A stretch of 64,000 nt of DNA, taken from NCBI GenBank assembly GCA_034664165.1, contig JAXDIE010000023.1, positions 2,777 through 66,776 of the forward strand. The letters are read 5' to 3'. A program made the position numbers and the translations under genes. Shown one piece after another: positions 4,688-63,805 of the stretch (positions are counted from its first letter, which is position 1; the number at the start of each line of letters is the position of its first letter). The notes beneath the pieces are model-generated. The model did no database searches. It had not been told where the DNA came from and worked only from the letters and a program-made list of their open reading frames with translations. This DNA comes from Thermoleophilaceae bacterium (GTDB lineage: Bacteria > Actinomycetota > Thermoleophilia > Solirubrobacterales > Thermoleophilaceae).

Positions 4688-4745
4688 GATCGCATCCTCC
4701 TCATCAAGTCATCAAGGAATGTGACACCAACTGATGACAAGGTTA

Positions 4746-5372: not shown

Positions 5373-5428
5373 AGATCTAGTGTGACGGAACTCACAGACA
5401 TGAGGCTAACCAATCGGATTTCCTGGGT

Positions 5429-5442
5429 ACTGTGTGTACAGT
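5429..5442. promoter_or_regulatory. candidate TetR operator (ACTGT-N4-ACAGT palindrome)
   Basis: actgtgtgtacagt lies in the 97-bp divergent region between the TetR gene (start 5372) and the reductase (ATG 5470). Confidence 0.3.
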
Positions 5443-5469
5443 CGTACACTGAAACTTCGAGAGGACAAG

Positions 5470-6546: not shown

Positions 6547-6575
6547 CACAACAACTTCGATCAAGGAGAGATGAA

Positions 6576-13581: not shown

Positions 13582-14790
13582 CTACTCCGACGGCCAGGTC
13601 TGGCGGCCCAGCTTCATGAAGGTGGAAACTGCCTGCGCCCGGTTCGAGGCACGCAGCTTGCGCAGGATGTTGCTCACGTGGGTCTTCACCGTGCCCTCCG
13701 AGATCACCAGACGCCGCGCGATCTCCCCGTTTGTCATCCCGTCGGTCATCAGCTGGGCGATCTCGATCTCCCGCCGCGTGAGCACGTCGAGCACCTTCGA
13801 GTCGGGCACGACGAGTGCGACGGCCGAGCGGGTCACCGCCGCCGTCTCGCGGTCAAGGCGGGCCAGATCCACCTCGCCGTCGACCACCGCGTCCACCGCC
13901 TGGCCGATCGAAGTCGTCAGCGTGGCTATCCGCTCCCGCAGCGCCCGCTGGCGCTCCAGCAGCACAGTCCGCTCGAACGCGTAGCCCGCCCCCTCGGCGA
14001 ACATCCAGAGGACGTCGCGGTCGAACTCGTCCACGTGGCGCTTCTGCATGTAGCAGTCGGCGTGGATGAAGCCGATCACACGGCCCTCCGGCATCAGCGG
14101 CGCCGTCACGTAGGAGCGGCTCAGGGACACGTCCGCGATCGGCCGATGTGCCCGGGGGTCGTTCTGCACATCCCTCACGAGCATCGGCGCCCTGCGCCGG
14201 ACCATCTCGGTCTCGAGCATCATGCCGTCCAGCATCTGCTCGTCCTCCCGCCCGGCCCTGATCACCTCGGCAGCCCATTCCGGATCACCCTCGATCACGC
14301 AGGTCTCGGGGATCCAGCGCGAGTCCTGGACCCGCGACAGGATCACCCGCGAGAAGCCGATGCCCACGACCTCCTCCGGGATCCGCTGCATGATCTGGTC
14401 GATCGAGGAGACCTCGCGGAGCCGTGCCAGGCCCTCCTGCGCCCGGGCGAAGGCACGGGAGCGGTGGCGCAACCGTGCCTCGCCAAGCTCCCTCTGAAGG
14501 TCAACCAGCGCGCGCAGGTCACCGGCCAGCGCGGCGGCGGGCTTGGCCTCGAGAGCCTCGCCCACCCCGTCGACGATCCGGTCGAGGAAGAGCGAGGCGG
14601 CGTCGAAGGCCAGCAGGTCGCCCGGCCCCGCGTCGGGGAGCCCGTCGACTCGCGTGCGCGCGGCATCGACCACGGCGGCTATCCGCCCACGGAGCTCCTC
14701 GTCCTCGAGCGGCTGGCCGTCGACGAACCACTCGCTCGCATCGGGCGTGCGAAAAGGCGCGTTCCCCTCCTGGGCGGCGACCGAAGCCAC
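13582..14790 (-). CDS. GAF-domain LuxR-family transcriptional regulator (paralog 1)
   Basis: C-terminal LuxR HTH LTRREIEIAQLMTDGMTNGEIARRLVISEGTVKTHVSNILRKL. Central GAF-like block ETEMVRRRAPMLVRD...APLMPEGRVIGFIHAD. The track ORF (to 15501) runs into the P450 gene. I use the in-frame GTG at 14790, 14 nt after the P450 stop. Confidence 0.78.
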   Translation of the reverse strand: MASVAAQEGNAPFRTPDASEWFVDGQPLEDEELRGRIAAVVDAARTRVDGLPDAGPGDLLAFDAASLFLDRIVDGVGEALEAKPAAALAGDLRALVDLQRELGEARLRHRSRAFARAQEGLARLREVSSIDQIMQRIPEEVVGIGFSRVILSRVQDSRWIPETCVIEGDPEWAAEVIRAGREDEQMLDGMMLETEMVRRRAPMLVRDVQNDPRAHRPIADVSLSRSYVTAPLMPEGRVIGFIHADCYMQKRHVDEFDRDVLWMFAEGAGYAFERTVLLERQRALRERIATLTTSIGQAVDAVVDGEVDLARLDRETAAVTRSAVALVVPDSKVLDVLTRREIEIAQLMTDGMTNGEIARRLVISEGTVKTHVSNILRKLRASNRAQAVSTFMKLGRQTWPSE

Positions 14791-14804: not shown

Positions 14805-16067
14805 TCAGGCGGAAGAAGGCGTCCAGCGGACCGGCATTGCGTGCACCCCGTGCATGAAGTTGTTCACCTGGCCGGTGAAGTCCCCGTCGAGCACGATGTC
14901 CGGCATCCGCGTGTAGATCTCGATGATCGCCGACTTCATCATCTGACGGCCCATCGCGGCCCCCATGCAGAAGTGGGCTCCGCCGGCCCCGAAGCCGAGA
15001 TGCTTGTTGGGGTCGCGCATGATGTCGAACTTCGCGGGCTCGTCGAAGATCTCCTCGTCGCGATTGCCCGAGCAGTACCAGAGCACCACCTTGTCGCCCA
15101 CGGCGATGTCGACGCCGCGGATCTGGGTGTCCTGTGTCGCGGTGCGCCGGAACTGCATGACCGGCGAGGCGTGGCGAAGGACCTCTTCCACCGCCCCGTC
15201 GACCCGGCCCTCCATGTCCTCCATGAGCAGCGCCAGCTGATCCGGGTTCTCGGTGAACAGCCGGATCGCGTGCGAGGTCGAGTGGCGAGTCGTGTCGTTG
15301 GCGGCCGAGCCGAGGAGGGAGAAGAACGCGGCGATCTCCCAGTCCTCCATCTTGCGGCCTTCGAATTCGGCCGAGAGGACCCAGCTCACCAGGTCGTCGC
15401 CGGGATTGACGCGTTTCTCCTCGGCCACCTCGAGCGCTACGTCCTGGATCCGCTGGCTCTCCTCGGCGAACGTCGTGATGGCGTCGCGCCCCTGGGCGCA
15501 CTCGGGGTCGTCCCAGGCGAGCATCTTCTCGGCGGCATCCATGATGATCGCGCCGCCCTCGCTGCCCGGGGGCAGGCCGAAGAAGTGCGCGAAGATCCTG
15601 CCGGGGAGCTCCTTGGCGAACATCTGGCAGAAGTCGCCCTCCCCCTTCTCGATCATCGCGTCGACCAGCTCACGGGCGTGGTCATGCACCCAGTCGTCGA
15701 TCTTCCTCACGTTCCGGGGGGTGAATGCGGTCTTGACGATGCCGCGGAGCTGGGTGTGCTCGGGCGCGTCCATCGCGAGGAACGAGGTCGATGCGACCTG
15801 CACGACCTCGGGAAAGTCCTCCATGAGAATGCCCTTGGCCGAGCAGAACGTGGCCGTGTCGCGGCTGATCATCTTCATGTCGTCGTACTTCGTGATCGCC
15901 CAGAACCCCGGGGTTTCATCGGTGGGGGGCAGCAGGGTCGACTCGTAGGGGCGCCTGTAGGAGACGGGCTCGTTCTGGCGGAACCAGGCGAACGTCTCCT
16001 CGCGCTCCTCGTAGGGCTTCTCCCAGAAGGACCGGGCCGAGATGTCCAGATCGACGGTTGCGCTCAT
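14805..16067 (-). CDS. cytochrome P450
   Basis: Heme loop FGAGGAHFCMGAAMG, ExxR (EEVLRH), I-helix GSAANDTT. Start MSATVDLD at 16067. The track ORF extends to 16328 through Arg/Gly-rich sequence. Confidence 0.9.
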   Translation of the reverse strand: MSATVDLDISARSFWEKPYEEREETFAWFRQNEPVSYRRPYESTLLPPTDETPGFWAITKYDDMKMISRDTATFCSAKGILMEDFPEVVQVASTSFLAMDAPEHTQLRGIVKTAFTPRNVRKIDDWVHDHARELVDAMIEKGEGDFCQMFAKELPGRIFAHFFGLPPGSEGGAIIMDAAEKMLAWDDPECAQGRDAITTFAEESQRIQDVALEVAEEKRVNPGDDLVSWVLSAEFEGRKMEDWEIAAFFSLLGSAANDTTRHSTSHAIRLFTENPDQLALLMEDMEGRVDGAVEEVLRHASPVMQFRRTATQDTQIRGVDIAVGDKVVLWYCSGNRDEEIFDEPAKFDIMRDPNKHLGFGAGGAHFCMGAAMGRQMMKSAIIEIYTRMPDIVLDGDFTGQVNNFMHGVHAMPVRWTPSSA

Positions 16068-16465
16068 TGAACAACCGCGTCCTTCTCCGCCACCAGCTCG
16101 TTGTACATCGGGAACAGGGGCTTGGTGAGCGGCACCAGCTTCAGGATCTTGTTGACGGGGCCCTTGGCCTTGACCTCGCCCTTGGCCAGGCCGACGGCCA
16201 GGTTGTACTTGCCGCGCCAGAACTGGTCGGCGGTGTCCGCCCGCATCATCAGGGTGATATCGGGAGTCACCTCGGTCGGGCCGGAGATCGTCTCCATCGG
16301 GTCGTGGAAGCGGACGGTGACCTCGCACTCGGGGTCCTCGTACACCACGCGCATGGTGATGCCGGCAGCCGCCATCTTCGGGCCCACGACCGGATGATCG
16401 GCCGCCTGGCGGAACATCTCGCCGATGTAGCGGTCGACTTCTTCTCCGTCACTGAAATAGCTCAC
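16064..16465 (-). CDS. SCP2 sterol/lipid-carrier-like protein
   Basis: 133 aa. C-terminal pattern DITLMMRADTADQFWRGKYNLAVGLAKGEVKAKGPVNKILKLVP is typical of SCP2 domains. 4-nt overlap with the P450 start. Confidence 0.65.
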   Translation of the reverse strand: MSYFSDGEEVDRYIGEMFRQAADHPVVGPKMAAAGITMRVVYEDPECEVTVRFHDPMETISGPTEVTPDITLMMRADTADQFWRGKYNLAVGLAKGEVKAKGPVNKILKLVPLTKPLFPMYNELVAEKDAVVQ

Positions 16466-17792: not shown

Positions 17793-18971
17793 ATGGCGGA
17801 CACCCGAGCACAGCCGAAGGGAACCGATCGCCAGACCGAACTGGTGGCGCTGGTGGTCGACACCGTCCGCCGGGCTGGCGAGCGGCTGGCAGAAGGGCCG
17901 GCGGTGGTGGGCGAAGGCGTCGACGCAGCCCGCGACGCCCTGGACGGAACGCTCGGCCAGCTGGCGGAGCGCCTGCGCGCACCGGGCGCCCAGCGCGGGG
18001 CAAAGCTCAGCGAGCTGACCGAGCTGGTGGTCGAATGCCATGCCCTGAAGGAGGCACTCGAACGCCAGGTCGGCGAGCGGCGCCTGGGCCTCCTCGGCGA
18101 CGTGCGCCTGGCACTGAGCAGCCTGCGTGGCATCGAATCCCTGCCGGGCCTGCTCGACAAGGCCGCTCAGGTGCTGTGCACGAACGTCGGCTTTGACAGG
18201 GTCTTCGTCTCGCGAGTGATCGACGCGACCCTTGTGGCCGAGAGCGTCTGGTTCCAGGGACACCCCGAGGATGCCAAGCAGCTGCTGGAGCTGTGGCGGG
18301 CACATCCGCCCGAGCTGACCCACGAGATCCTCGAGACGGAGCTGGTGCGCCGGCGCTCTGCCGCCGTGGTGCTCGACCCCGCAACGGACCCGCGGACCTT
18401 CAAGCCGCTGGTGAAGGCCACAGCGACCGGCTCCTACGTGGTCGCGCCAATCGCGCCGGAGGGCCGGGTGATCGGCTTCCTGCATGCGGACCACCACTAT
18501 TCGGGCAGGGTTGTCGACACCCTCGACCGCGACGTCCTGTGGACCTTCGCCGAGGGGTTTGGCTACGCCATCGAGCGCGCGGTGATGCTCGAGCGGCTGC
18601 GTGCCCAGCGCACCCGGATCCGCCAGATGGTGGTGTCGATCGAGGCGCTCACATCGGACCTGGTGGCCGCCGACGTCGAGATGACCGTGCGCGCCCACGA
18701 CTCCGCCGACATGGCGCACGCCGCGGCATCGATGTTCGTGGCGCCGGAGTCGAGGATCAAGGCGCTCCTCACTCCCCGCGAGCTCGAGGTGCTGGCGCTG
18801 ATGGCCGAGGGCGCCACCAACGCGGCGATCGCCAACCGCCTGGTCATCTCCGAGGGCACGGTCAAGTCACACGTCAAGCACATTCTCCGCAAGCTGCGCG
18901 CGGCCAACCGCGCCGAGGCGGTGTCGCGCTACATGCGCCTGACCCAGCCGCGGCCCGGCATTGCGGCTTGA
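17793..18971 (+). CDS. GAF-domain LuxR-family transcriptional regulator (paralog 2)
   Basis: ATG at 17793 follows GGAGGAGAG. GAF-like block ETELVRRRSAAVVLD...APIAPEGRVIGFLHAD. LuxR HTH LTPRELEVLALMAEGATNAAIANRLVISEGTVKSHVKHILRKL. Confidence 0.8.
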   Translation: MADTRAQPKGTDRQTELVALVVDTVRRAGERLAEGPAVVGEGVDAARDALDGTLGQLAERLRAPGAQRGAKLSELTELVVECHALKEALERQVGERRLGLLGDVRLALSSLRGIESLPGLLDKAAQVLCTNVGFDRVFVSRVIDATLVAESVWFQGHPEDAKQLLELWRAHPPELTHEILETELVRRRSAAVVLDPATDPRTFKPLVKATATGSYVVAPIAPEGRVIGFLHADHHYSGRVVDTLDRDVLWTFAEGFGYAIERAVMLERLRAQRTRIRQMVVSIEALTSDLVAADVEMTVRAHDSADMAHAAASMFVAPESRIKALLTPRELEVLALMAEGATNAAIANRLVISEGTVKSHVKHILRKLRAANRAEAVSRYMRLTQPRPGIAA

Positions 18972-45452: not shown

Positions 45453-46589
45453 TCAGCGGTCGGTGCCCCGGGCGCGGAGGTAGAGGGACGCGGCCTCTAC
45501 GCGGTTTGCCGCTCCCAGCTTGCGCAGGATCCGCTTGACGTGGGACTTGGTGGTGCCCTCGGTGATGACAAGCTTGTCGGCAATCTGGTTGTTGGTGGCT
45601 CCCTGGGCCACCAGCGCCAGGACCTCGCGCTCGCGCCGGGTGAGCTGCGCCTCGATCGCCGTCTCCACATCCCCGAAGAGCGCCGCTGCCGACCGCGCCG
45701 CGCCCGCTTCGACCGGCCCGGCGACCAGTTCGACCTGGGCCGCCAGCTGAGCAGACACCACCGAGTCCGCCTGTGCGATGAGACTCTTGAGCTCCTGGCC
45801 CTGGGAGCGCAGCCTGTCCAGCAGCTGCATGCGCTCTACAGCGAACCCGAGCCCCTCGGCGAAGGCCCAGATGGCATCGCGGTCGAAGCCGTCGACGGCA
45901 TCGATCACGCCGGGATATCGCAGGCCCTTCTCCCCGTGCAGGAACCCGATCACCCGGCCCTCGGGCATGATCGGCGCCGCGACGTAGGCGTGCGAGCCGT
46001 AAGCCCTGACGAGCGGCTTGTACGTGGAGGGGTGGTTCTGTGCGTCGTGCACGACCATCGGCCGGCGGCGGCGGATCATCTCCGACTCCAGGATCTGCTC
46101 GCGGAGCGGCGCGGGGTTGGCCCGGCTCAGCTCCAGCAGCTCCGCCGCGCGCTCAGGGTCACTGGCCACGAAGAAGCCCTCGCAGATCATCATCGCGTCC
46201 TCCACCCGATAGATGGCAACGCGATCGAAATCGCAGGCCCATGCAACCTCGGCAGGGGCCCTCCTGATCATCGCCTCACTGGCGCCGATGCCACGGAGGC
46301 GCTCGAGGGCCTCGTGAATCCGCCCGAACACCAGCAGCCTACGGCCCATGCGCTCCTCCACGAGCTCCGAGCGCACCTGGCTCAGCTCGACCAGGGCATC
46401 CCAACGCTCGCGGTCCTCGCCGGTAAGGTCCTCCTGGCGCGCGGCCAGGGCCACATCCAGGGCGTCGAGCAGGGCCTCGGCACCGCCCTTCTCGGGCACG
46501 GTGGCGCCACAGCGCTCCAGTACCTCGGCGGCGCGGGCCACCAGCGAAGCAGAGGCCGGAGCCTCCGCCGCGGAAGATCTCTGGCTCAC
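45453..46589 (-). CDS. GAF-domain LuxR-family transcriptional regulator (paralog 3)
   Basis: GAF-like block ESEMIRRRRPMVVHD...APIMPEGRVIGFLHGE. LuxR HTH LTRREREVLALVAQGATNNQIADKLVITEGTTKSHVKRILRKL. The in-frame GTG at 46589 overlaps the upstream hydrolase stop (GTGA). The track ORF extends to 47945. Confidence 0.78.
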   Translation of the reverse strand: MSQRSSAAEAPASASLVARAAEVLERCGATVPEKGGAEALLDALDVALAARQEDLTGEDRERWDALVELSQVRSELVEERMGRRLLVFGRIHEALERLRGIGASEAMIRRAPAEVAWACDFDRVAIYRVEDAMMICEGFFVASDPERAAELLELSRANPAPLREQILESEMIRRRRPMVVHDAQNHPSTYKPLVRAYGSHAYVAAPIMPEGRVIGFLHGEKGLRYPGVIDAVDGFDRDAIWAFAEGLGFAVERMQLLDRLRSQGQELKSLIAQADSVVSAQLAAQVELVAGPVEAGAARSAAALFGDVETAIEAQLTRREREVLALVAQGATNNQIADKLVITEGTTKSHVKRILRKLGAANRVEAASLYLRARGTDR

Positions 46590-53384: not shown

Positions 53385-53804
53385 GTGAGCGAACTTCTGA
53401 ACGGTCGCTGCCTATGCGGCAACATCACGTACTCGTGCAGCGCCGACCCGGCGATGCAGGCGCTCTGTCACTGCACGGACTGCCAGCGACAGACGGGATC
53501 GATGGGTTCGGTGCTCGTCGGCGTGCCGGCGGGAACCCTCGACGTCGCGGGCGAGACCCTTTCGACCTACGAGACGATCGGAGAGGATCGTGGCACCCCA
53601 GCCGCCCGCGCGTTCTGCTCGAACTGCGGATCGCCGATCAGCACGACGGTGCCCGAAATGCCCGAGCTCGTCTTCATCAAGGCCGGAACACTCGACGACA
53701 CGTCCTGGCTCCAGCCCCAACTCGAGGTGTGGGGAAAGTCGGCTCAGCCCTGGCTGCCCGTCGAGGAAGGCCGTCCGCGCATGGAGCGCGGACCCGAGGG
53801 CTGA
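53385..53804 (+). CDS. GFA/CENP-V family zinc protein (glutathione-dependent formaldehyde-activating enzyme-like)
   Basis: Cysteine pattern CLCGN...CHCTDCQRQTG...CSNCGSPI. GTG at 53385 follows GGAGAGAGAGG. The track ORF starts at 53364. Confidence 0.75.
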   Translation: MSELLNGRCLCGNITYSCSADPAMQALCHCTDCQRQTGSMGSVLVGVPAGTLDVAGETLSTYETIGEDRGTPAARAFCSNCGSPISTTVPEMPELVFIKAGTLDDTSWLQPQLEVWGKSAQPWLPVEEGRPRMERGPEG

Positions 53805-53834
53805 CATGACCACTATTGAAAGGAGCCCGTTTCG

Positions 53835-54596
53835 ATGAGCGATGACCTGACTGGGCGCCGGGCGTTGGTAACGGGTGCCGCACGCGGCCTGGGACTGGCT
53901 GTCGCGGAGCTGTTCCTGGAGCGCGGAGCCACCGTGATGCTGTCGGACCGCGATGGGGCCGAGGCCGAGGCCGCGGCCGACCGTCTGGGTGACAAGGCGC
54001 TCCCGAACACGTGTGATGTGACCTCCAGCGAGCAGGTCCAGGCGATGATCGCCGCGGCCGTCTCCGAGATGGGCGGGCTCGACATCCTGGTGAACAACGC
54101 CGGAATCGAGATCTCGAAGCCCATGAACGAGCACAGCGATGAGGAGTTCCTCAACCTGCTCAAGATCAACGTGCACGGGGTGTTCATGTGCACCAAGTAC
54201 GCGGTGCCCGCCCTGGCCGAGAGCAAGGGCAACATCGTGAACATGGCCTCGGTGGCCGGGCTGGGTGCCGCGCCGCTGCTCTCGGCCTACTGCTCCTCCA
54301 AGGCCGCGGTCATCGGATTCACCGAGGTCTGCGCGCTCGAGCTGCGGGACGCGGGCATCCGCGTGAACGCGGTGTGCCCGTCGTTCATCGGCACGGAGAT
54401 GGTTGACCGGATGATCCCGATCTACGAGGAGATACTCCCCTTGCCCTTCGATGAAGTCGTGAAGATCAAGCAGGGCCGACTCGGAACCTCCGAAGAGGTG
54501 GCCGAGACCGTGGCCTTCCTGGCCTCGGATGACGCCTCCTGGACCACAGGCGCCCATTTCACCCTCGACAACGCCCTCACGGCGAGCCTTCTCTGA
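53835..54596 (+). CDS. short-chain dehydrogenase/reductase
   Basis: 253 aa. TGAARGLG, NNAG, YCSSKAA. Confidence 0.88.
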   Translation: MSDDLTGRRALVTGAARGLGLAVAELFLERGATVMLSDRDGAEAEAAADRLGDKALPNTCDVTSSEQVQAMIAAAVSEMGGLDILVNNAGIEISKPMNEHSDEEFLNLLKINVHGVFMCTKYAVPALAESKGNIVNMASVAGLGAAPLLSAYCSSKAAVIGFTEVCALELRDAGIRVNAVCPSFIGTEMVDRMIPIYEEILPLPFDEVVKIKQGRLGTSEEVAETVAFLASDDASWTTGAHFTLDNALTASLL

Positions 54597-55366
54597 TGGG
54601 CGTGCTCGACGGGAAGGTCGCAATCGTCACCGGCGCCGGCCAGGGACTCGGCCGTGCGGTGGCCGAGGAGTTCGGGCGCGAAGGCGCGACGGTCGTCGTC
54701 TCAGACATCAACGGAGATGCCGCCGAGTCGGTTGCCGCAGGCATTGACGGCGCAACCGCCGTGACGTGCGACGTCACTGACGAGGCGCAGGTCAAGGCGT
54801 TGGTCGCGGCGGCGGTGGATGCGCACGGCGGACTCCACATCATGGTGCCGAACGCGGGCATCGCGAACACGCCCACGCCGCTGACGGACCTGAGCCTCGA
54901 GGACTGGCGCAAGGTCACCTCCGTGAATCTCGACGGCGTGTTTCTCTGCATAAGGGAGGCCGCGCCGGCGATCATCGGGGCAGGCGGAGGGATCATCGTG
55001 AACATGTGCTCGATCACGGCGCTGAAGGGGTTGCCGCTGGCGGGAAGCTACGCCGCGGCCAAGGCCGGCGTGCTGTCCCTGACCAAGACCAGCGCCGTGG
55101 AGTTGCGCGACCATGGCGTGGCGGTTCACGCGATCTGCCCCGGCTTCATCGGCACCGAGCTTGTCACGGACACAAAGTCGGCGTTCGAGTCGGCTCTCGG
55201 GCTTCCAGAGGGCGGCTTCGACGAGGTCATCGCCGGTGCCCAGGGACGCTACGGCGAGGCATCCGAAGTGGCACGGCTCGCGGTGTTCCTCGCATCGGGC
55301 CGGGCGAGCTTCAGCAGCGGCTCGGAATTCGTGCTTGACGGCGGAGCCTCGGCCTCGCTCCTCTAG
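54596..55366 (+). CDS. short-chain dehydrogenase/reductase
   Basis: 256 aa. TGAGQGLG, PNAG, YAAAKAG. 1-nt overlap with the upstream SDR. Confidence 0.88.
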   Translation: MGVLDGKVAIVTGAGQGLGRAVAEEFGREGATVVVSDINGDAAESVAAGIDGATAVTCDVTDEAQVKALVAAAVDAHGGLHIMVPNAGIANTPTPLTDLSLEDWRKVTSVNLDGVFLCIREAAPAIIGAGGGIIVNMCSITALKGLPLAGSYAAAKAGVLSLTKTSAVELRDHGVAVHAICPGFIGTELVTDTKSAFESALGLPEGGFDEVIAGAQGRYGEASEVARLAVFLASGRASFSSGSEFVLDGGASASLL

Positions 55367-55380
55367 CCGCCCTTTTCTCG

Positions 55381-55632
55381 TTGCCGCTGTTTGCCCTGGT
55401 GCGAACAGCGGCAATGGGGAGGTCACCCGGGCGGCGGGGACCCTTTCACAACCCTCGGGGCTAATTGCACGGAGCTTTCCTGGGGAACAATTCGTGGTCC
55501 CCCTTCGTTGCCTTCCTGGGTGCGGTTCCGTGACAACGGCAGCAATCAGGTAACAGAGCGGCGCAAACGGGAGCCTGCCTCTCCCAACGGAGACAGGACC
55601 CGCGGTGCAGCAGCTGTACGAGCAGTAACTGG
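55381..55632. repeat. intergenic repeat element, copy B (core 55447-55632)
   Basis: Aligns with copy A. Carries AACGGCAGCAATCAGG at 55534-55549. A degenerate inverted pair ttgccgctgtt / aacagcggcaa lies at 55381-55414. Confidence 0.75.
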
Positions 55633-55633
55633 C

Positions 55634-56242
55634 CTAGCGCAGGTAGATGGCGCCCATCCACGTGGGCATCAGCGAGTCGATCACGGCCTCGGGCTTCATG
55701 TCGCCTCGCGCGAGCTGCATGTAGCAGCAGCGCTCGACCATCCAGACGAGGGCCGTGGCCATCTGGTCGGCATCGAACGGCCGGATGGCCCCGGTGGCCT
55801 GCTCGCGGCGGAAGTAGTCGGCACTGGCCTCGATGAAACGGCCGATCAGGGCGCGCCAGAAGGCGGCGAACTCCTCGTCGTAGCCGGAGACCTCGGTCAC
55901 CACCCTCAGCAGACCCGAGTGGCCGGCGTAGGCGGTGGCAACCCCGTCGAGCGCCTCGCGGACGATGGCCTCGGGCTGTCCCTCGCCATGCCACCAGCGG
56001 TCGGCCTCCAGGTAGAGCTCGTCCATCACGCTCTCGGCCGCCGCCATCAGGGCGTCGTTCTTGCCGCGGAAGTGGGCGTAGAAGGCGCTGCGGTTGATGC
56101 CGGCCTCGCGGGCGATCGCCTCGACGCTGATCTCCTTGAAGGGCCCGAGCTCTGCCAGCCGCATGGTGGCCTCGGCGGCCGCGCCGCGGACCTCGTCCTG
56201 TCGCTGGGAGAAGACCTGGCGTGTGGGCCGGGTGACCGACAT
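55634..56242 (-). CDS. TetR family transcriptional regulator
   Basis: 202 aa from MSVTRPT. HTH SVEAIAREAGINRSAFYAHF. Divergent from the monooxygenase operon. The track ORF extends to 56407. Confidence 0.85.
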   Translation of the reverse strand: MSVTRPTRQVFSQRQDEVRGAAAEATMRLAELGPFKEISVEAIAREAGINRSAFYAHFRGKNDALMAAAESVMDELYLEADRWWHGEGQPEAIVREALDGVATAYAGHSGLLRVVTEVSGYDEEFAAFWRALIGRFIEASADYFRREQATGAIRPFDADQMATALVWMVERCCYMQLARGDMKPEAVIDSLMPTWMGAIYLR

Positions 56243-56267
56243 GGCGCTGATTCTAAGCGCATCGCCG

Positions 56268-56298
56268 ACAGAGTGTTGGACACTGTGTCCTACAGTGC
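56268..56298. promoter_or_regulatory. candidate TetR operator cluster (AGTGT-TGG-ACACT overlapping ACTGT-N5-ACAGT)
   Basis: agtgttggacact (56272-56284) and actgtgtcctacagt (56282-56296), in the 118-bp divergent region. Confidence 0.35.
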
Positions 56299-56360
56299 GT
56301 TGCAGGGACCCCGGATGTGTGGTAGGACTGCCTTTCGCCCACCCTTTGGAGGAGTGACCC

Positions 56361-58001
56361 GTGAGCAAGACCCGCCGCCGCAGCATCACGCAGACCCACG
56401 ACCGCATCGGCCAGCTCGGCTGGGAGCCGGATTACCACAACCCCGTGCCGAAGTACCCCACGCGCTACCGCTTCCCGCACAAGGCCAAGGATCCGATGAA
56501 GCACATCATGCGGGAGTACCTGCCGATGGAGCTCGAGAAGGACGAACGCGTCTATGGAGGACACGACGCGGCGGTTCGGGCCGGCATGGGTGAGAAGGCC
56601 TCGGTGCGCTGGCAGGAGATCCTCAAGGGCTTCATCACGGTGACCAACTTCGCCGAGATCGGCGCCGGGCGCTGCATGTCGATGCTGATGGACGCGGTGC
56701 CCAACAACGAGCTGCGCAACGGCTACCACGTGCAGTTCGTCGACGAGATCCGGCACACCGGCATGCAGATGTCGCTGGCCCGCTGGTACGCCAAGCACAC
56801 GCCCGACCCGTCGGGGTGGAACATCGCGCAGAAGGCGCTCCCCTCCACCCCGCTCACCGGGCCCGCCATCAACATGCTCTCCCACTTCTTCGTGGGGGAT
56901 CCGATCCAGTGCGCGTTCACCCTCCAGGTTGTGGCCGAAACGGCGCTCACAAACGTGGCCTTCGTCGCTCTGCCCGACACGGCCGCTCGCAACGGCGATT
57001 TCGCCCTCCCGACCACCTACCTCTCGGTGCAGTCAGATGAGGCGCGCCACATCTCGAACGGCTACGCGACCTTGCTCACCGTGCTCCAGGACGACCACAA
57101 CGCGCCGCTGATCGAGCGTGACCTGCAGCAGGCGTGGTGGATCAACCACGCGTACCTGGACATCTTCTCCGGGGGCATCATCGAATACTTCTCGCGCGAC
57201 CGGTCGGACCCGGAGAGCTACCTTGACAAGTGGGACCGCTGGATCCGCGACGACTGGTACCGCTCATACGTGCTGAAGCTCGGCAAGCTCGGCCTGAACG
57301 TCCCGCCTGACATCTTCGAGGACGCCCGCGAGCGCATCGTGAAGGGCCTGGTCCACAAGAACACGATGCTCGGGTTCGCCGCGTGGCCCCTCCATTTCTG
57401 GCGCTTTGACCCGCTGGTCGAGCGTGACTTCGAGTGGTTCGAGTCCAAGTACCCGGGCTGGTACGACGAGTACGGCGCATTCTGGGAGGCATACGCCCAG
57501 TGCACCGACCCCGCCGACCACGCCCTCCTGCTGAACATGCTGAGCGTGGCGCCGCCGAACTGCTGGACCTGCCAGACCTCCTGCGTGATCGAGGAGGACA
57601 TCACCCACCGGGTGGTGTCGGACCACACGCGGTTCTACTGCTCAAAGTGGTGCCAGTGGATGGACGAGTCCAACCCGGGCCGCTACACGGGCGACCGCAA
57701 TTTCTTCGACCGCTACCACGGCTGGGAGGTCTCGGACGTCGTCCGCTCACTGGGCTTCGTGCGGCCCGACGGCAAGACGCTGATCGGCCAGCCGCACCTG
57801 AACGACGACAAGCAGTGGACCCTCGATGACATCAAGGCTTGCGGCGTGGAGATCCAGAGCCCGAACATCCGCATGGCCGAGGAGATGGGCCTGCCCAGCG
57901 GCAACTGGCACGAGCCGGCCATGTCGAACGGGATCGGCATGGGCGCACGCCTGCCCGACCTGCCGGCGCCGCTGGCGACGCCCGGCCCGGCAGGCGTCTA
58001 G
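56361..58001 (+). CDS. prmA: soluble diiron monooxygenase hydroxylase large (alpha) subunit, propane/acetone/phenol (Prm/Mim) type
   Basis: 546 aa. GTG after GGAGGAG. Diiron motifs FVDEIRH and VQSDEARH. C-terminal CWTC...YCSKWC cysteine cluster as in PrmA/MimA. Confidence 0.9.
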   Translation: MSKTRRRSITQTHDRIGQLGWEPDYHNPVPKYPTRYRFPHKAKDPMKHIMREYLPMELEKDERVYGGHDAAVRAGMGEKASVRWQEILKGFITVTNFAEIGAGRCMSMLMDAVPNNELRNGYHVQFVDEIRHTGMQMSLARWYAKHTPDPSGWNIAQKALPSTPLTGPAINMLSHFFVGDPIQCAFTLQVVAETALTNVAFVALPDTAARNGDFALPTTYLSVQSDEARHISNGYATLLTVLQDDHNAPLIERDLQQAWWINHAYLDIFSGGIIEYFSRDRSDPESYLDKWDRWIRDDWYRSYVLKLGKLGLNVPPDIFEDARERIVKGLVHKNTMLGFAAWPLHFWRFDPLVERDFEWFESKYPGWYDEYGAFWEAYAQCTDPADHALLLNMLSVAPPNCWTCQTSCVIEEDITHRVVSDHTRFYCSKWCQWMDESNPGRYTGDRNFFDRYHGWEVSDVVRSLGFVRPDGKTLIGQPHLNDDKQWTLDDIKACGVEIQSPNIRMAEEMGLPSGNWHEPAMSNGIGMGARLPDLPAPLATPGPAGV

Positions 58002-58010
58002 GAGGCACCG

Positions 58011-59051
58011 ATGCCGCAGGTGGTGTTCGAGCCGATTGGCGAAGAGATCGAGTGCGGTGAGGAGGAGTCGATCCTCGACGCCGCGTTCCGCCAGGGCTAC
58101 AACCTGGTCTACGGCTGCCGCGAAGGCCAGTGCTCGGCCTGCAAGTGCTACCTGCTGGAGGGCGAGGTGGCGCTGAAGCCCTACTCGACGTTCGCGCTCT
58201 CCGAGACCGAGGAGGCCAACGGCTACACGCTGATGTGCCGGGCGATGCCCGAGGAGGACCTCGTGGTCGAGCTGCTGCACTTCGACCCCGACAACTATCG
58301 CCTGGAAAACCCGATCCGCGAGGGGTCCGCCACTGTGATCACCAGCGAAGCGCTCACGCACGACATCCAGCGCCTGCAGCTCAAGGTCGACGCGCCGCTG
58401 GACTTCTCCTTCGAGCCGGGGCAGTACGTGGACATCACCGTGCCTGGGGGCGATGCCACCCGCTCGTTCTCGATGGCCAACCTGCCCGACGGCAACATCG
58501 AGCTGATGATCAAGCGCTATCCAGGCGGCCGTTTCTCCGGGTTGCTCGACGGCGAAATCGCGGAGGGCTCCCGGCTCGACTTCACCGGCCCGTACGGCTC
58601 CTTCCGCCTTCGCGCCACGGAGCGGCCGGTGCTGCTCGTGGCGGGCGGCTCCGGCATGGCGCCGGTTCTCAGCCTGCTACGCCGCCTCGCCGCCGATCGG
58701 AGCACGCGCCCTGTCCGCTTCTACTACGGCGCCCGCACCCAAGCCGACCTGTTCCACCTGGACCAGGTCGAGGAGCTGGGCGCCCGGCTCGATGACTTCG
58801 CGTTCGTCCCCGTGCTCTCCGAGTCGGGCCCGGAAGGCGCCGAGCTGGGCTTGGTGCACGAGGCCGCCTGCGGCTGCCTCGAACGAGGCGAGCTGAGCGA
58901 CGCCGAGGTGTACACGTGCGGCCCCCCGCCCATGATCGACGCTCTGATCGAGCAGCTGGTCGACGGGCGTGGCTTTGACGAGAGCCGGATCTTCTACGAC
59001 AAGTTCACGACCTCCGCCGAGGCTGCGGAAGGAGCAACGCATGACCGATGA
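58011..59051 (+). CDS. prmB: monooxygenase NADH-oxidoreductase (2Fe-2S ferredoxin plus FNR-like)
   Basis: 346 aa. CREGQCSACKC...C 2Fe-2S, RSFSMAN FAD motif, LLVAGGSGMAP NAD motif. Confidence 0.9.
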   Translation: MPQVVFEPIGEEIECGEEESILDAAFRQGYNLVYGCREGQCSACKCYLLEGEVALKPYSTFALSETEEANGYTLMCRAMPEEDLVVELLHFDPDNYRLENPIREGSATVITSEALTHDIQRLQLKVDAPLDFSFEPGQYVDITVPGGDATRSFSMANLPDGNIELMIKRYPGGRFSGLLDGEIAEGSRLDFTGPYGSFRLRATERPVLLVAGGSGMAPVLSLLRRLAADRSTRPVRFYYGARTQADLFHLDQVEELGARLDDFAFVPVLSESGPEGAELGLVHEAACGCLERGELSDAEVYTCGPPPMIDALIEQLVDGRGFDESRIFYDKFTTSAEAAEGATHDR

Positions 59052-60057
59052 GCGCAGCTTCCAGTGGTTCACCCCGACCAAGCGCCGGGCGAGCATCTAC
59101 GAGGACGTGACGATGGACACCCAGCCCTCGGTGCACCGTTTCCTCGAGCGCGGCTGGCAGATGTGCTTCGACGATGGCGCGCCGACCTGGTCGGATGACT
59201 CGACCGCCCTGAAGAGCACGAGCTGGTTCGATTTCCGCGACCCCGGCGAGCAGTGGGAGCGCCCGTTCTACCAGCGCGGCGCCGGCTCCGAGCGCCAGAT
59301 CGAGGGCGCCGTGAAGGGCGCCGCGGACGACGGGCTGTTCGCCGACTTCGACGCCGACTGGATCGCCTTCCTGCGCAACCACCTGCAGGTGCCGGCATTC
59401 ATCGACCACGGGATCTGGCTGCCAACCGCGATCGCGGCTCGCGCATGCCTCTCTGACTCGATCACCCATTGCGTGGCCATCGAGGCGAGCATGAAGCAGC
59501 GGTCGGCCCAGGCGCTGGTCCTCTACGCCATGGATCTCGAGCCCCACCTGGGCGAGTTCCCGATCGAGTCCTGCCGCAAGAGCTGGCTCGAGCACGAGGC
59601 CTGGCAGCCGAGCCGCGCCTACATCGAGAAGCTGGGCACGATCACTGACTGGGGCGAGCTGATCGTGGCCGCCAACGCCTGCTTCGAGCCGGCCGTGGGC
59701 ATGCTCGTGCGGCGGGAGCTCGGCATGCGGGCCGCGAGCGCCAATGGCGACACCGTCACTCCGGTCATTTTCCGCGCGGCCGCCCAGGAGTCGCAGTGGA
59801 TCAAGGAGTGGACCGGCGAGCTCATGCGCTTCGCGGCCGCCGACGAGCAGAACGGCGCCGCCAACAAGGAGCTGATCGCCGGCTGGGCTGCCGACTGGCT
59901 GCCGCAGGCCGAGGAGGCGGCGCGGGCGATCGCCCCGATCGCCGCCGAGCTGCCGAAGGCAATCGACTTCGACGCGGCCGTGACCGCCGGGATCGGCGAG
60001 GCGCGCGCTGTGTTCGAGGAAGCCGGCGTGGCTCTCCCCCAGGCGGTGGGCGCGTGA
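59041..60057 (+). CDS. prmC: monooxygenase hydroxylase small (beta) subunit
   Basis: 338 aa from MTDERSF (11-nt overlap with prmB). Position and size match the Prm/Mim beta subunit. The track ORF starts at 58969. Confidence 0.75.
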   Translation: MTDERSFQWFTPTKRRASIYEDVTMDTQPSVHRFLERGWQMCFDDGAPTWSDDSTALKSTSWFDFRDPGEQWERPFYQRGAGSERQIEGAVKGAADDGLFADFDADWIAFLRNHLQVPAFIDHGIWLPTAIAARACLSDSITHCVAIEASMKQRSAQALVLYAMDLEPHLGEFPIESCRKSWLEHEAWQPSRAYIEKLGTITDWGELIVAANACFEPAVGMLVRRELGMRAASANGDTVTPVIFRAAAQESQWIKEWTGELMRFAAADEQNGAANKELIAGWAADWLPQAEEAARAIAPIAAELPKAIDFDAAVTAGIGEARAVFEEAGVALPQAVGA

Positions 60058-60392
60058 GCGATCAGGGATTTGCGGATGCCCCTGCCGACGAGGGCACGCA
60101 CGACTACGTGGGGATTGTCATGTCGAAGAGCGTCGAGGGCGACGCCGTGGTCAGCGTGCTCCGCGGCACCGAAGGCGTCGAGGTGATCGAGCAGCCGTCC
60201 TTCTGGGAAGTCCGCGCCAAGGACAGGCTCGTCATCAGCTACGAGGATGTATCCGAGGAGCTTGGCGAGGACGTCGATGCGTATGCGATCCAGCACGAGA
60301 TGTCCACCCACTACGGCCGTATGCTCACTACCGACGATGCCCTGATGCTGGTCTCGGATCCGACCGAGATCATGGATCACCTGATGGGCTGA
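60054..60392 (+). CDS. prmD: monooxygenase coupling/effector protein (MmoB/DmpM family)
   Basis: 112 aa. The GTG at 60054 overlaps the prmC stop (GTGA). Size and position are typical. The track ORF starts at 59796. Confidence 0.7.
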   Translation: MSDQGFADAPADEGTHDYVGIVMSKSVEGDAVVSVLRGTEGVEVIEQPSFWEVRAKDRLVISYEDVSEELGEDVDAYAIQHEMSTHYGRMLTTDDALMLVSDPTEIMDHLMG

Positions 60393-60400
60393 CAGGAGAG

Positions 60401-61321
60401 TTGATGTCCACCGCTTCAGAAGTCCCCGGCCTCACGGTCAGGCGCATTCCCAACCCCGAGGAGCCCGTTCCGGCGGTCGCCTGGCCCACGGTCGGCCTGC
60501 TGGTTGCAGGCATCGGGATCTGGGTGGGCTCCTCCCTGGCCATGATCAACGGCGTCTGGCCCTGGTGGATCTCGACGTTCATCAACGCGTTCGCCTCCTA
60601 CGTCCTGTTCACGGTCGCCCACGACGCGGCCCACCACACGGTGTCGAGCCACAAGCGGCTCAACGACTGGCTGGGCCGGCTGGCGGTGCCGTTCTTCGCC
60701 CCGCATGCGGCCATGCCCACGTGGCGCTTCATCCACATGCAGCACCACCGGTTCACCAACCACGACGACGGGAACGACCCCGATCACTACACGATGCGCG
60801 GGCCCAGCTGGCAGCGGCCGTTCCGGTGGATCACCGTCGACCTCTTCTACATGGTCTTCTACCTGCCCAAGCTCGGCTCGCGGCCGCGCTCGGAGAAGAT
60901 CGAGCTCGCGATCCAGTGGATCGTCGTGGGAGGGATCAGCATCGCCGCAATCGCGACCGGCCATCTGTTCGAGCTGATCGTCCTCTACTACCTGCCCTGC
61001 AGGATCGCTGTGTTGTTCCTGGGCTGGGCCTTCGACTACCTGCCGCACAACAGCCTGCACCTCAAGCCCGAGGAGGACAAGCTCAAGACCACCCGCAACC
61101 GGATCGGCGGCGAGTGGTGGATGTCCCCGGCGTTCCTGTACCAGAACTACCACCTGGTTCATCACCTGCACCCGCTGGTGCCCTTCTACCGCTACATAGC
61201 GGTCTGGCGGCGTAACGAGGAGAAGTACCTGGAGGGCGATCCGGCGCTATCGACCGTGATGGGGCGGCCGATCACGGCCGATGAGTACCGGCAGATGCGG
61301 GAGCTGGTCGAACAGCACTAG
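60401..61321 (+). CDS. membrane diiron fatty-acid-desaturase-family protein (desaturase/hydroxylase/ketolase-like)
   Basis: 306 aa. His boxes HDAAHH, HMQHHRFTNH, HLVHHLHP. N-terminal TM pair. TTG at 60401 or ATG at 60404, directly after the GGAGAG that follows the prmD stop. Confidence 0.85.
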   Translation: MMSTASEVPGLTVRRIPNPEEPVPAVAWPTVGLLVAGIGIWVGSSLAMINGVWPWWISTFINAFASYVLFTVAHDAAHHTVSSHKRLNDWLGRLAVPFFAPHAAMPTWRFIHMQHHRFTNHDDGNDPDHYTMRGPSWQRPFRWITVDLFYMVFYLPKLGSRPRSEKIELAIQWIVVGGISIAAIATGHLFELIVLYYLPCRIAVLFLGWAFDYLPHNSLHLKPEEDKLKTTRNRIGGEWWMSPAFLYQNYHLVHHLHPLVPFYRYIAVWRRNEEKYLEGDPALSTVMGRPITADEYRQMRELVEQH

Positions 61322-63456
61322 CTGGGCACGACGCGAAGGGCGAGGATCGCAACGTCGTCCTCCACTCCGTCGGAAATGGAAGCGAGAATTGAGTCGACGC
61401 AAGCCTCGACGGGCTGGGGCCCGTGGGCAAACAGCGTTTGCAGGACATCGATGCCCGCGTCAATCGGAACCGTGCGACGCTCAACCAGGCCATCCGTGTA
61501 GAGCAGCAATGTGTCGCCCGGCAGCAAGTCCGCGACGTCCTCCTCATAGACGGCGTCGGCGAAAATGCCCACGGGCGGGGACGACTTACCGGCAAGTCGT
61601 ATCACCGAGCCATCGGAGTGGCGGATCAAAGCCGGTGGATGACCGGCACGGACGAAACTGACCTCCCGGGAGCGAGGGTCGAACCGCAACTGAAACAGGG
61701 TTGCCATCGGCGGGTCGTCGAACGCGATCATCAAGCGGTTCAGCCGCCGCAGGCTCGCCGCCGGCGAAAATGCGTCTTCCGCATAGGCGCGGAGCGCAAT
61801 TCGGAGCTGGCCCATGACCGAGGCCGCCCGGGCGCCGTGACCGGCGACGTCGCCGACCGTGATCGTCAGGCGGCCGTCCGCATCCTCCGTGACGTCGTAC
61901 CAGTCGCCTCCGACCTCTATGGCGTCTTCGGCCGGGAGATAGCGGCTCGCGAGTTCGATCCCTGCAACTTCCGGCAACTGCCGCGGCAACAAGGTCCGCT
62001 GCAATGTCAAAGCAGCTTCCCGCTCCCGGCGATAGGCGGTCGCGTTGTCGACCGCCATCGCGGCTCGTCGCGCCAGATCCATGGCCAGGTCGAGATCTGC
62101 CGTGCCGAAGCGCCTGCCGGATTCCGCTGCCACGAGGGTCATCGTGCCCAGGGAACGCCCGTGTGCAATCAGCGGCACCGTCATTGCGGACACCACACCC
62201 AGCCGGCGGATCAACTCGAGGTGCTCCTCGTCCTGCGCGGCCGATTCGACCAGGCCGGCGGGAATCTCCTCGAACAGCTCCGGCATCCCCGTACGCAGGA
62301 CGTTGGGGGCACCGAACGCGGCATCCGGGTCGACGGGGTAGCGCCGCTGGATCTCGCGAGCGAAGGCCACCTTTGATGGATCCGCGTGGGCAATCGCAAC
62401 GTTCCGCAGCGTGCCATTTTCCTCGGAGAGGTCGACCGTGCACCAGTCCGCAATGTGCGGGACGGCGAGCGACGCGAGCTTGTCGAGCGTCTGGTCGACG
62501 TCCAGGGACTCGGCGAGGACCTGGCTCGCACTGGCGAGGAAGGACAACGCCTGCCTGGCCGCCCGCTCAGCCTCAAACAGGCTGGTCCGCTCAATCGCAT
62601 GGGCTGCCTGCTGGGCGGTGGCGAAGGCAAACGCCCGCTCCGCGGGCGTGAAATTGTGGCCGTCGCCAAAACTGAGGGCCAAGGCACCGAGCGTGTCCTC
62701 GCCAACGACGATGGGAACGACGGCCAGCGAGCCAGGGGCGGATCTGCCCGCCAGGAGGGGATATCTCTCTTCGACCCGTGCCTGCGACTCACACCAGACG
62801 GGCTCGCGGCCGCGGATAGCCTCGGCCATGGGCAGATTGGCCGATGATGGAAACTGCCGAAGTGCCTCGATCGCCTGCACCGAGTACCCGACCCGGCGCG
62901 CGATCCTGATCTCGTTCGTCTCCGGGTCCAGGAGCCCGACCGCCCCGGCAGTGGCGCCCAGCGCCGGGACAGCCTCCGCGAGGAGAACCGCGATGGCACG
63001 GTCCGGAGTCAGCTCCTTCGACAGCAGACTGGTGAGCCGGTGTAGCCGTGCGGCCTGATCAAGGCTGCGGCGATGCTCGGTGATGTCCCTTGCGATCACA
63101 GACGCCGCTGTCACCTCCCCGGAGGCGTCCCGCACGGCCGAAACCGTCAGCGACACGATCACGGCCCTGCCGTCCTTGGTTACGCGTTCAGTCTCGTAGT
63201 GCTCGATTCGCTCGCCTGCGAACACCCTCCGCAGGATGTCCATCTCCTCACCCGATCGGTGCGGGGGCACAAGGATCGAGATGGGCCGGCCGATCGCCTC
63301 GTCCGGGGAATAACCGTAGATCTGTTGCGCTCCGCGATTCCAGCTGGTGATCGTCCCTTCGGAGTTCTTGGTGACGATGGCGTCATCCGAGGAATCGACT
63401 ACAGCCCGAAAGTGGCTGTCGCGGAGTGAGGAATCGGCGTGGCTACTCAAGGACAT
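61318..63456 (-). CDS. PAS-GAF-GAF-PP2C (SpoIIE/RsbU-type) serine phosphatase
   Basis: 712 aa from MSLSSHAD. PAS segment (DAIVTKNSEGTITSWNRGAQQIYGY), two GAF-like segments, and PP2C motifs GGDWYDV, GDVAGHG, LLLYTDGLVE. The track ORF extends to 63678 across the STAS gene. Confidence 0.85.
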   Translation of the reverse strand: MSLSSHADSSLRDSHFRAVVDSSDDAIVTKNSEGTITSWNRGAQQIYGYSPDEAIGRPISILVPPHRSGEEMDILRRVFAGERIEHYETERVTKDGRAVIVSLTVSAVRDASGEVTAASVIARDITEHRRSLDQAARLHRLTSLLSKELTPDRAIAVLLAEAVPALGATAGAVGLLDPETNEIRIARRVGYSVQAIEALRQFPSSANLPMAEAIRGREPVWCESQARVEERYPLLAGRSAPGSLAVVPIVVGEDTLGALALSFGDGHNFTPAERAFAFATAQQAAHAIERTSLFEAERAARQALSFLASASQVLAESLDVDQTLDKLASLAVPHIADWCTVDLSEENGTLRNVAIAHADPSKVAFAREIQRRYPVDPDAAFGAPNVLRTGMPELFEEIPAGLVESAAQDEEHLELIRRLGVVSAMTVPLIAHGRSLGTMTLVAAESGRRFGTADLDLAMDLARRAAMAVDNATAYRREREAALTLQRTLLPRQLPEVAGIELASRYLPAEDAIEVGGDWYDVTEDADGRLTITVGDVAGHGARAASVMGQLRIALRAYAEDAFSPAASLRRLNRLMIAFDDPPMATLFQLRFDPRSREVSFVRAGHPPALIRHSDGSVIRLAGKSSPPVGIFADAVYEEDVADLLPGDTLLLYTDGLVERRTVPIDAGIDVLQTLFAHGPQPVEACVDSILASISDGVEDDVAILALRVVPS

Positions 63457-63805
63457 GGAGTGCTTCCTCCACCGTGCCATACCGCGGAAGGAACCCGGTG
63501 AGGCCGGTGACATCGAACAGGCTGGCTGCGACCGACCCGTCAGCCGCGGCCAGCACAACGGGCACGCCGTCGCCGTCGAGCCCCTCCTTCGCGCCGAGCA
63601 CGATATGCAGCGCGCTCGAGTCCATGAACACCACCTCATCCATGACGAGGACGACCGCCGGCCCCTCCAGCGCGGCATTCAACGCCTCCGAAAAGGCTTG
63701 CGCGACACTGAGGTCGAACTCGCCCGACAGGGCGACCACGGTCGCAGTCGAGCCGGTGGGAGCGTCTTGACGCTCCACCTCGAAATTAACCTCGCCTGTG
63801 CTCAT
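63443..63805 (-). CDS. STAS-domain anti-sigma-factor antagonist (RsbV/SpoIIAA-like)
   Basis: 120 aa. Size, the DSSAL motif (MDSSALHIVLGAKE) and position between a kinase and a phosphatase gene all fit. Confidence 0.8.
   Translation of the reverse strand: MSTGEVNFEVERQDAPTGSTATVVALSGEFDLSVAQAFSEALNAALEGPAVVLVMDEVVFMDSSALHIVLGAKEGLDGDGVPVVLAAADGSVAASLFDVTGLTGFLPRYGTVEEALHVLE

Follow-up and report, generated by a model that had tools for sequence, protein, structure and literature searches.

The sequence considered here is a stretch of 64,000 nucleotides (the window) from a Thermoleophilaceae bacterium (assembly GCA_034664165.1, contig JAXDIE010000023.1, positions 2,777 to 66,776 of the forward strand). 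At 56361-61321 it contains four genes for a soluble diiron monooxygenase (SDIMO) that are followed directly by a gene for a membrane protein of the FA_desaturase family. A preliminary description of this DNA had proposed that the adjacency of the two oxygenases reflects either the sequential oxidation of one hydrophobic substrate or the sharing of a reductase. Our comparison of the corresponding genomic neighborhoods suggests a different origin: the five-gene cluster is most likely a young, species-level mosaic of two oxygenases without an ancestral functional link. The pairing is a gene-order accident of one species and not a conserved two-oxygenase module, and we consider it reasonably probable that a promoterless group-5 SDIMO cassette was inserted between the operator/promoter of an EthR-type TetR regulator and a resident desaturase gene.

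The evidence for this proposal begins with the loci most similar to the one in the window. The closest relative of the desaturase (92% amino acid identity) is found at locus L081, where the gene order is abhydrolase, SDR1, SDR2, TetR (on the opposite strand) and desaturase, with no SDIMO; SDR stands for short-chain dehydrogenase/reductase. Locus L160 has the same layout, and its TetR, SDR2 and desaturase N-terminus are 91%, 93% and 93% identical to those of the window. The window retains SDR1 (53835-54596, + strand; adh_short_C2, 206 bits; 83% amino acid identity to L081), which is part of an ancestral PucR-GFA-[abhydrolase]-SDR-SDR-desaturase block, SDR2 (54596-55366, + strand, recognized by Pfam; 93% to both L081 and L160) and the EthR-type TetR gene (55634-56242, - strand; 89-91% to L081 and L160), whose homologs carry PF00440 and PF21313 and which is divergent from the SDIMO alpha gene. 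The spacer between TetR and desaturase is 67-88 nt in L081 and L160 and about 4.1 kb in the window, where it holds exactly the four SDIMO genes. In blastn comparisons with L081 and L160 the window was matched through SDR1-SDR2 and TetR (55608 to 56255 or 56295) and again from 60403, with nothing between. The indel segment delimited in this way (56296-60402, + strand, about 4.1 kb) comprises a leader of approximately 65 nt, the four SDIMO genes and 10 nt past the stop of the coupling-protein gene. Its right edge, at 60403, is one base before the desaturase ATG, and its left edge is uncertain, at about 56296-56340.

Just to the left of this junction lies a near-perfect 21-bp palindrome, TGTTGGACAC-T-GTGTCCTACA (56274-56294), which was recognized from the sequence only and which is a plausible candidate for the TetR operator; its half-site GTGTCCTACAG is common to the window, L081 and L160. 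The DNA of these closest relatives is about 83-87% identical to the window. The latter two loci are sisters, with 89.5% identity to each other compared to about 83% to the window, and in their lineage the TetR gene is divergent from the desaturase gene itself and not from an alpha gene as in the window. In the outgroup loci L082, L001 and L166, the last two from the same genus, SDR1 belongs to the same SDR-SDR-desaturase run and SDR2 is found directly before the desaturase (21-38 nt), with neither TetR nor SDIMO. As a separate observation, the abhydrolase gene that precedes SDR1 in L081 (278-1111) and L082 (2475-3308) is missing at 53804-53835 of the window, which indicates a further indel in this lineage.

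The adjacency was then surveyed more broadly, with one sample of 401 genomes from the order and another of 401 genomes from the phylum. When 80 loci containing orthologs of the desaturase (54-75% identity) were searched by tblastn with all four SDIMO genes, none had SDIMO genes within the 10-kb flanks. The same held in the opposite direction, where approximately 8-11 kb downstream was examined at each of 30 orthologous SDIMO loci and neither a desaturase nor a GroEL-like gene was present within about 8 kb of any of them. Both genes occur together in 5 of the 401 genomes of the order, and they are adjacent only in this genome; in the others they are separated by 850 kb or belong to different contigs. 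The phylum sample contained 23 MmoB-type loci in 19 genomes, and the only one of these with a PF00487 gene within 70 kb was the window's own. In these surveys an operon combining an SDIMO with a membrane desaturase did not recur in independent lineages. These counts, together with the nearest relatives that have no SDIMO, leave the proposal of sequential oxidation or a shared reductase unsupported as the reason for the adjacency. The preliminary description had itself named an adjacency unique to this genome as an outcome that would speak against it, and this is the outcome of the synteny survey.

The list of open reading frames and a Pfam scan identify five co-directional genes in the cluster (56361-61321, + strand). 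The first encodes the SDIMO hydroxylase alpha subunit (56361-58001, 546 aa), which is group-5-like and matches PF02332 with 171 bits. It is followed by the gene for an NADH oxidoreductase (58011-59051) that, according to Pfam, has an N-terminal [2Fe-2S] Fer2 domain and then FAD_binding_6 and NAD_binding_1, the MmoC/BenC type; the NCBIfam models BenC and MmoC both match it below their cut-offs. The third and fourth genes encode the hydroxylase beta subunit (59041-60057, 338 aa, PF02332), which is also 338 aa in the independent gene call of the metagenome contig L172, and the coupling/effector protein (60054-60392, 112 aa; MmoB_DmpM, 67 bits), which is identical in the metagenome contigs L171 and L172. 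The fifth gene encodes the His-box membrane diiron protein of the FA_desaturase family (60404-61321, 305 aa, PF00487), which we place in a CrtR/GntB-like branch. The order alpha, reductase, beta and coupling protein, with overlaps of 11 nt (ATG 59041 and TGA 59049-59051, reductase/beta) and 4 nt (GTGA, 60054-60057, beta/coupling), had been given in the preliminary description and was confirmed by the open reading frames, by Pfam and by direct reading of the sequence. That description also had a fifth gene of 306 aa starting 8 nt after the coupling-protein stop, behind a GGAGAG. The adjacency stands and the start is shifted by 3 nt: ATG 60404 is likelier than TTG 60401, because the orthologs open with MST(T/A)SEVPG at that position and independent gene calls also give 305 aa, and the gap then becomes 11 nt with a GGAG 5 nt upstream of the start.

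A consensus scan of 55300-61600 found no terminator-like sites, including in the gap between the coupling-protein and desaturase genes, and it found no promoter match either, although such a scan says nothing about an actinobacterial promoter. Because of the 11-nt gap with its Shine-Dalgarno (SD) sequence and the lack of a terminator-like site, the five genes are probably read as one transcript from the TetR-controlled promoter. The 3' end of the operon is bounded by a convergent PAS-GAF-GAF-PP2C(SpoIIE) gene (61318-63678, - strand, Pfam), whose stop overlaps that of the desaturase (TAG 61319-61321) by 4 nt (61318-61321); the overlap of the convergent stops leaves no room for terminators between the two converging units. 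The gene 3' of the desaturase is a different one in L081, L082 and L166, and the PP2C gene is therefore non-syntenic with the relatives. The host contig extends only 1.4 kb past the window.

The history that we propose for the cluster is the following. In its older context the desaturase, a member of a stand-alone conserved Thermoleophilia family, would have belonged to the PucR-GFA-(abhydrolase)-SDR-SDR-desaturase arrangement. An EthR-type TetR gene would then have come to lie divergently before the desaturase in the lineage that includes the window and, in this species only, a regulator-less cassette of about 4.1 kb would have taken up a position before the desaturase ATG and behind the operator/promoter region of TetR. 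It may be a laterally acquired or a relocated copy, and it most likely arrived by insertion. The result would be a promoter capture, by which the SDIMO takes over the regulation of the desaturase and all five genes are expressed from the TetR-controlled promoter.

Four observations favor insertion. In our tree the window alpha branches first with a metagenome contig and next with family f3, apart from the copy of the same genus, and the approximately unbiased (AU) test rejects a same-genus alpha clade (p=0.0013), a group that was defined only once the tree was known. The nearest SDIMO relatives (78% identity; L161, L124 and L173) have GAF-LuxR, SCP2-like, alcohol dehydrogenase (ADH) and aldehyde dehydrogenase (ALDH) genes as neighbors and no EthR-like TetR gene beside them. 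For the TetRs linked to SDIMOs elsewhere (family f2 and L129), the most similar protein in this genome is encoded on contig C39 (50%), and their identity to the window TetR is 32-35%. Finally, the relatives of the window TetR (50-56% identity) adjoin unrelated genes, with neither an SDIMO nor a desaturase beside them. The idea that the window TetR travels with SDIMOs was for these reasons rejected, the protein being not orthologous to the SDIMO-linked TetRs and its own relatives not SDIMO-associated. We also observed, at L155 and L156, an EthR-type TetR (52%) divergent from two Ribonuc_red_sm-like (R2-like diiron) genes and from genes for a rubredoxin, an electron transfer flavoprotein and a GMC oxidoreductase, which is putatively another TetR-gated diiron oxidase unit.

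Several points weigh against an insertion of the cassette alone. No direct repeats, mobile-element scars or leader homology with donor-like loci were found at the cassette edges, and there is no shift in composition (GC content of 0.671 in the cassette, 0.684 and 0.653 on its two sides). The close spacing of the desaturase gene to the coupling-protein gene (11 nt, with a good SD sequence) and the low ratio of nonsynonymous to synonymous substitution rates of the desaturase (dN/dS 0.10) are also expected if the new arrangement is in use, and the co-transcription that the proposal assumes is deduced only from gene spacing. Family f2 offers examples of SDIMO modules with a divergent TetR. Moreover, gain and later loss of a TetR+SDIMO module requires as many events as two insertions, and since L081 and L160 are sisters event counting cannot pick insertion or deletion.

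These last points lead to another explanation, in which TetR and SDIMO were inserted together, after SDR2 and before the desaturase, in the common ancestor and the lineage of L081 and L160 later lost the SDIMO cleanly. The number of events is equal, since the two loci form one clade; divergent TetR-alpha modules are known from family f2 and from L129; and the missing abhydrolase gene shows that the window lineage has undergone another indel nearby. This explanation nevertheless has to accommodate a TetR that has no orthology to the TetRs linked to SDIMOs and whose relatives are not SDIMO-associated, close SDIMO relatives that carry no such TetR, and spacers of 67-88 nt in L081 and L160 from which SDIMO remnants are absent, and we regard it as unlikely.

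The fifth protein matches PF00487 with 111.6 bits (cut-off 29.7) and contains the three His boxes H73DAAHH, H111MQHH and H250LVHH (HX3H, HX2HH and HX2HH), whose eight histidines (H73, H77, H111, H114, H115, H250, H253 and H254) are conserved without exception among 14 orthologs, as well as four transmembrane (TM) helices at about 28-50, 54-72, 165-186 and 188-210. A Pfam score above the gathering threshold, three His boxes with eight histidines and four TM helices place it in the FA_desaturase superfamily, in agreement with the membrane His-box protein (HDAAHH, HMQHH, HLVHH) recognized earlier, which can now be classed as PF00487 and CrtR/GntB-like. The best curated models are CrtR (NF045688; 106.3 bits against a cut-off of 475) and GntB (52 bits against 380), and the first of these scores does not make it a CrtR beta-carotene hydroxylase; we describe it as a putative CrtR/GntB-like membrane hydroxylase/desaturase. 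Sequence and profile searches gave no PDB match. An AlphaFold model had a mean predicted local distance difference test (pLDDT) score of 68, with a poor C-terminal third, and Foldseek searches with it returned only weak matches, to AlkB, to SCD1 and to a desaturase-like chain of chloroplast FtsHi complexes, which are consistent with the superfamily and add nothing on function. The gene is under purifying selection relative to its counterpart in L081 (92% amino acid identity; dN/dS 0.10 at dS 0.55). The family of stand-alone proteins of about 300 aa gave 1226 matches, mainly in Solirubrobacterales and Thermoleophilaceae, and the only recurring neighbor across the 80 desaturase loci was a PucR-type regulator (13 loci).

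A real partnership, new or older, in which the two enzymes oxidize one hydrophobic substrate in sequence or the SDIMO reductase feeds the His-box enzyme, is in our opinion rather improbable. The arrangement of the genes is suitable for it, with 11-nt spacing, an SD sequence and no terminator-like site, and the desaturase gene is intact, with purifying selection acting on it. Its family draws electrons from FNR/[2Fe-2S] reductases, and natural fusions exist: homologs of the fifth gene (43-46% identity) at L162-L165 (G155, G316, G114 and G383, same order) encode proteins of 672-868 aa with the domain order FA_desaturase, FAD_binding_6, NAD_binding_1 and Fer2, and these fusions are probably the reason for the frequent 'PaaE' label on stand-alone family members in JGI annotations. 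In this genome a gene for an FNR/[2Fe-2S] reductase also lies just before each of two other desaturase genes. One such pair is within the window, where the gene for an FNR-type reductase (FAD-NAD-Fer2, 370 aa; 5434-6546) overlaps by 4 nt that for a 384-aa FA_desaturase (6543-7697), and the other is on contig C48 (about 3364-5439). The stand-alone 305-aa protein was without a dedicated adjacent reductase at every locus examined. Since the family uses the FNR/[2Fe-2S] donor class, sharing of the SDIMO reductase is conceivable, and its pairing with the His-box enzyme can be put forward as a conjecture.

The same data also contain the arguments against a partnership. The adjacency occurs in one species only, and the orthologs of the fifth gene function without an SDIMO or a reductase nearby. 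Fer2 is C-terminal (PaaE/PDR type) in the natural partners and fusions and N-terminal (MmoC/BenC type) in the SDIMO reductase, which shares only 25-30% identity with them. An alternative reductase is available in the window at 5434-6546; the earlier claim that the reductase of the cluster (prmB) is the sole electron-transfer gene is for this reason correct for the operon and not for the window. Finally, we know of no chemical link between a CrtR-like membrane hydroxylase and a group-5 SDIMO of the short-chain or ether type, which also counts against a partnership. A more specific version, to which we give still less credence, is a hybrid operon under one EthR-type repressor in which the SDIMO reductase would serve both oxygenases or the membrane enzyme would further oxidize or desaturate the SDIMO product; if true, it would be a natural snapshot of a new two-oxygenase pathway built by promoter capture.

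An assembly or binning artefact is scarcely credible even though the genome is metagenome-assembled (178 contigs, 87% complete, 3.7% contamination), because the DNA on either side of the cassette is collinear with one and the same set of relatives. In addition, the beta-coupling-desaturase and coupling-desaturase-PP2C joins are covered, at 99.8-99.9% identity, by two independent contigs from other samples, L171 (JGI 3300044720, 99.84%) and L172 (Logan SRR24887414, 99.94%), so that a chimera was rejected.

The SDIMO itself can be assigned with the available references. The diiron ligands of the alpha subunit are complete (E99, E129xxH132, E193 and E227xxH230), and their spacing of 30/64/34 is similar to that of MmoX (30/65/34). 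The closest characterized alpha subunit is ThmA of R. ruber YYL (54.6% identity). Among solved structures the alpha is closest to MmoX of the soluble methane monooxygenase (E=2e-86), and its identity to a Prm-type alpha of Rhodococcus, encoded at a locus with amidohydrolase, ADH and GroEL genes, is about 44%. Group 5 of the SDIMOs has been defined by the gene order alpha-reductase-beta-coupling and a group cut-off of 40% alpha identity, and its subgroup A consists mostly of Actinomycetota metagenome-assembled genomes plus the Thm enzymes (PMC11825192). With the same gene order, at least 40% alpha identity and E/EXXH/E/EXXH ligands, the window enzyme is supported as a group 5 (Thm/Prm-like) SDIMO, because its identity to ThmA and its gene order fit this definition, and the type named in the preliminary description (Prm/Mim) is supported in the form of Prm/Thm. 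In our tree the whole Thermoleophilia alpha clade is placed beside ThmA (support 80/68); with few references, this subgroup placement is provisional. The MimD model gave the coupling protein 78.5 bits, below the equivalog threshold of 150. Group 5 is also associated with monooxygenase activity on propane, acetone, tetrahydrofuran (THF) or related substrates, which the window enzyme may share.

The earlier remark that the locus lacks the accessory genes customary in Prm/Mim operons was verified: there is no Cpn60 and no Zn-ADH on this contig, and no Amidohydro_2 above the cut-off anywhere in the genome. With GroEL, amidohydrolase and ADH unlinked here, the locus does not belong to the MimABCD/PrmABCD subgroup with a MimG-type chaperonin. 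This set is typical of Prm/Mim loci, and its absence is an ordinary property of the whole Thermoleophilia SDIMO clade and not a peculiarity of the window locus, because the thm cluster and all 30 Thermoleophilia loci are also without an adjacent GroEL.

Orthologs of the alpha subunit (at least 65% identity) were found in about 34 of the 401 genomes of the order (~8%), with a patchy distribution, and the alpha-reductase-beta-coupling order is conserved in 30 out of 30 orthologous loci. The neighbors of these loci follow a few patterns. At the loci L124-L153 and L173, family f2 has genes for a GMC oxidoreductase and an aldehyde dehydrogenase downstream and a divergent TetR gene, and none of these loci has a linked chaperonin; the loci of family f3 have an SCP2-like gene downstream and a divergent PucR gene; and family f5 and L173 have GAF-LuxR, SCP2-like, Zn-ADH and ALDH genes upstream. 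The presence of a GMC oxidase or Zn-ADH with ALDH, and of the SCP2-like protein, is suggestive of a hydrophobic substrate and of a pathway from alcohol to acid. The window also contains three GAF-LuxR paralogs that are 44-48% identical to the regulator of the L173 SDIMO and a 62% homolog of the 135-aa protein encoded next to that regulator; the four homologs are at 13582-14556 (-), 16064-16465 (-), 17934-18971 (+) and 45477-46409 (-). The last-mentioned protein, the 62% homolog, adjoins Mce/MMPL genes away from the SDIMO. An earlier 'home' of the SDIMO at 13.6-19 kb of the window was considered and discarded, as the homologs of SDIMO-linked genes there lie by Mce/MMPL genes and leave no clear trace.

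The genome contains a second SDIMO locus, on contig C19. The preliminary description had suggested looking for a mimG-like groEL in the rest of the genome, and a divergent GroEL paralog (369 bits, below the cut-off of 582 bits of the GroEL equivalog) is indeed present inside this second locus; none is linked to the five-gene cluster. The C19 locus (compare L093, 7794-17994) contains genes for a cytosine/purine-type permease, beta, coupling protein and an alpha with a YHS domain, a thioredoxin-like [2Fe-2S] ferredoxin (NuoE-like), a cyclase/arylformamidase-like protein and a NuoF-like flavoprotein, in addition to the GroEL paralog and an M20 peptidase. No FNR-type reductase is found among its genes, and the NuoE/NuoF-like pair may be the electron input of this SDIMO, which would be unusual for an SDIMO.

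The new SDIMO/desaturase system proposed for this DNA does not stand. The value of the locus is as a clean and datable case of a regulator-less catabolic cassette located between a repressor-controlled promoter and a resident gene, in which both the 'before' and the 'after' states are available in metagenomes. The comparison also shows that the Thermoleophilia have their own group-5 SDIMO clade, with no linked chaperonin and with ADH/ALDH/SCP2-type neighbors, which is relevant to the mining and expression of SDIMOs, and the reductase fusions in the family of the fifth gene identify its electron-donor class.

The cluster can be compared part by part with the closest known systems. The EthR/EthA-type units share with the window an EthR_C-type TetR gene divergent from an oxygenase gene and a palindrome in the short spacer; the difference is that the regulated gene was here a membrane desaturase-like gene to which an SDIMO has now been added, with TetR binding predicted only. 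CrtR, the cyanobacterial beta-carotene hydroxylase, and GntB, the L-arginine hydroxylase of guanitoxin, have the superfamily, the His boxes and the four TM helices in common with the fifth protein, which differs by scoring far below both equivalog cut-offs and by occurring mainly in Solirubrobacterales and Thermoleophilaceae. A documented precedent for a reductase/desaturase pair is Rv3230c-DesA3 (Rv3229c) of M. tuberculosis (bioRxiv 10.1101/2022.04.26.489556). The same logic, a FAD/NAD/[2Fe-2S] reductase just upstream of a His-box enzyme, is seen at 5434-7697, on contig C48 and in the fusions, whereas the only reductase near the fifth gene is the SDIMO's own, has the opposite domain order and would have arrived with the cassette. 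As for the SDIMO, the Thm enzymes (tetrahydrofuran monooxygenase ThmADBC of Pseudonocardia and of R. ruber YYL, plasmid pYYL1.1) and the propane-2-monooxygenase PrmABCD/MimABCD have the same alpha-reductase-beta-coupling order as the window, and the thm cluster, like the window cassette, is without an adjacent GroEL. The window SDIMO differs from Thm, Prm and Mim by belonging to a separate Thermoleophilia-wide clade with an internal identity of 65-78%.

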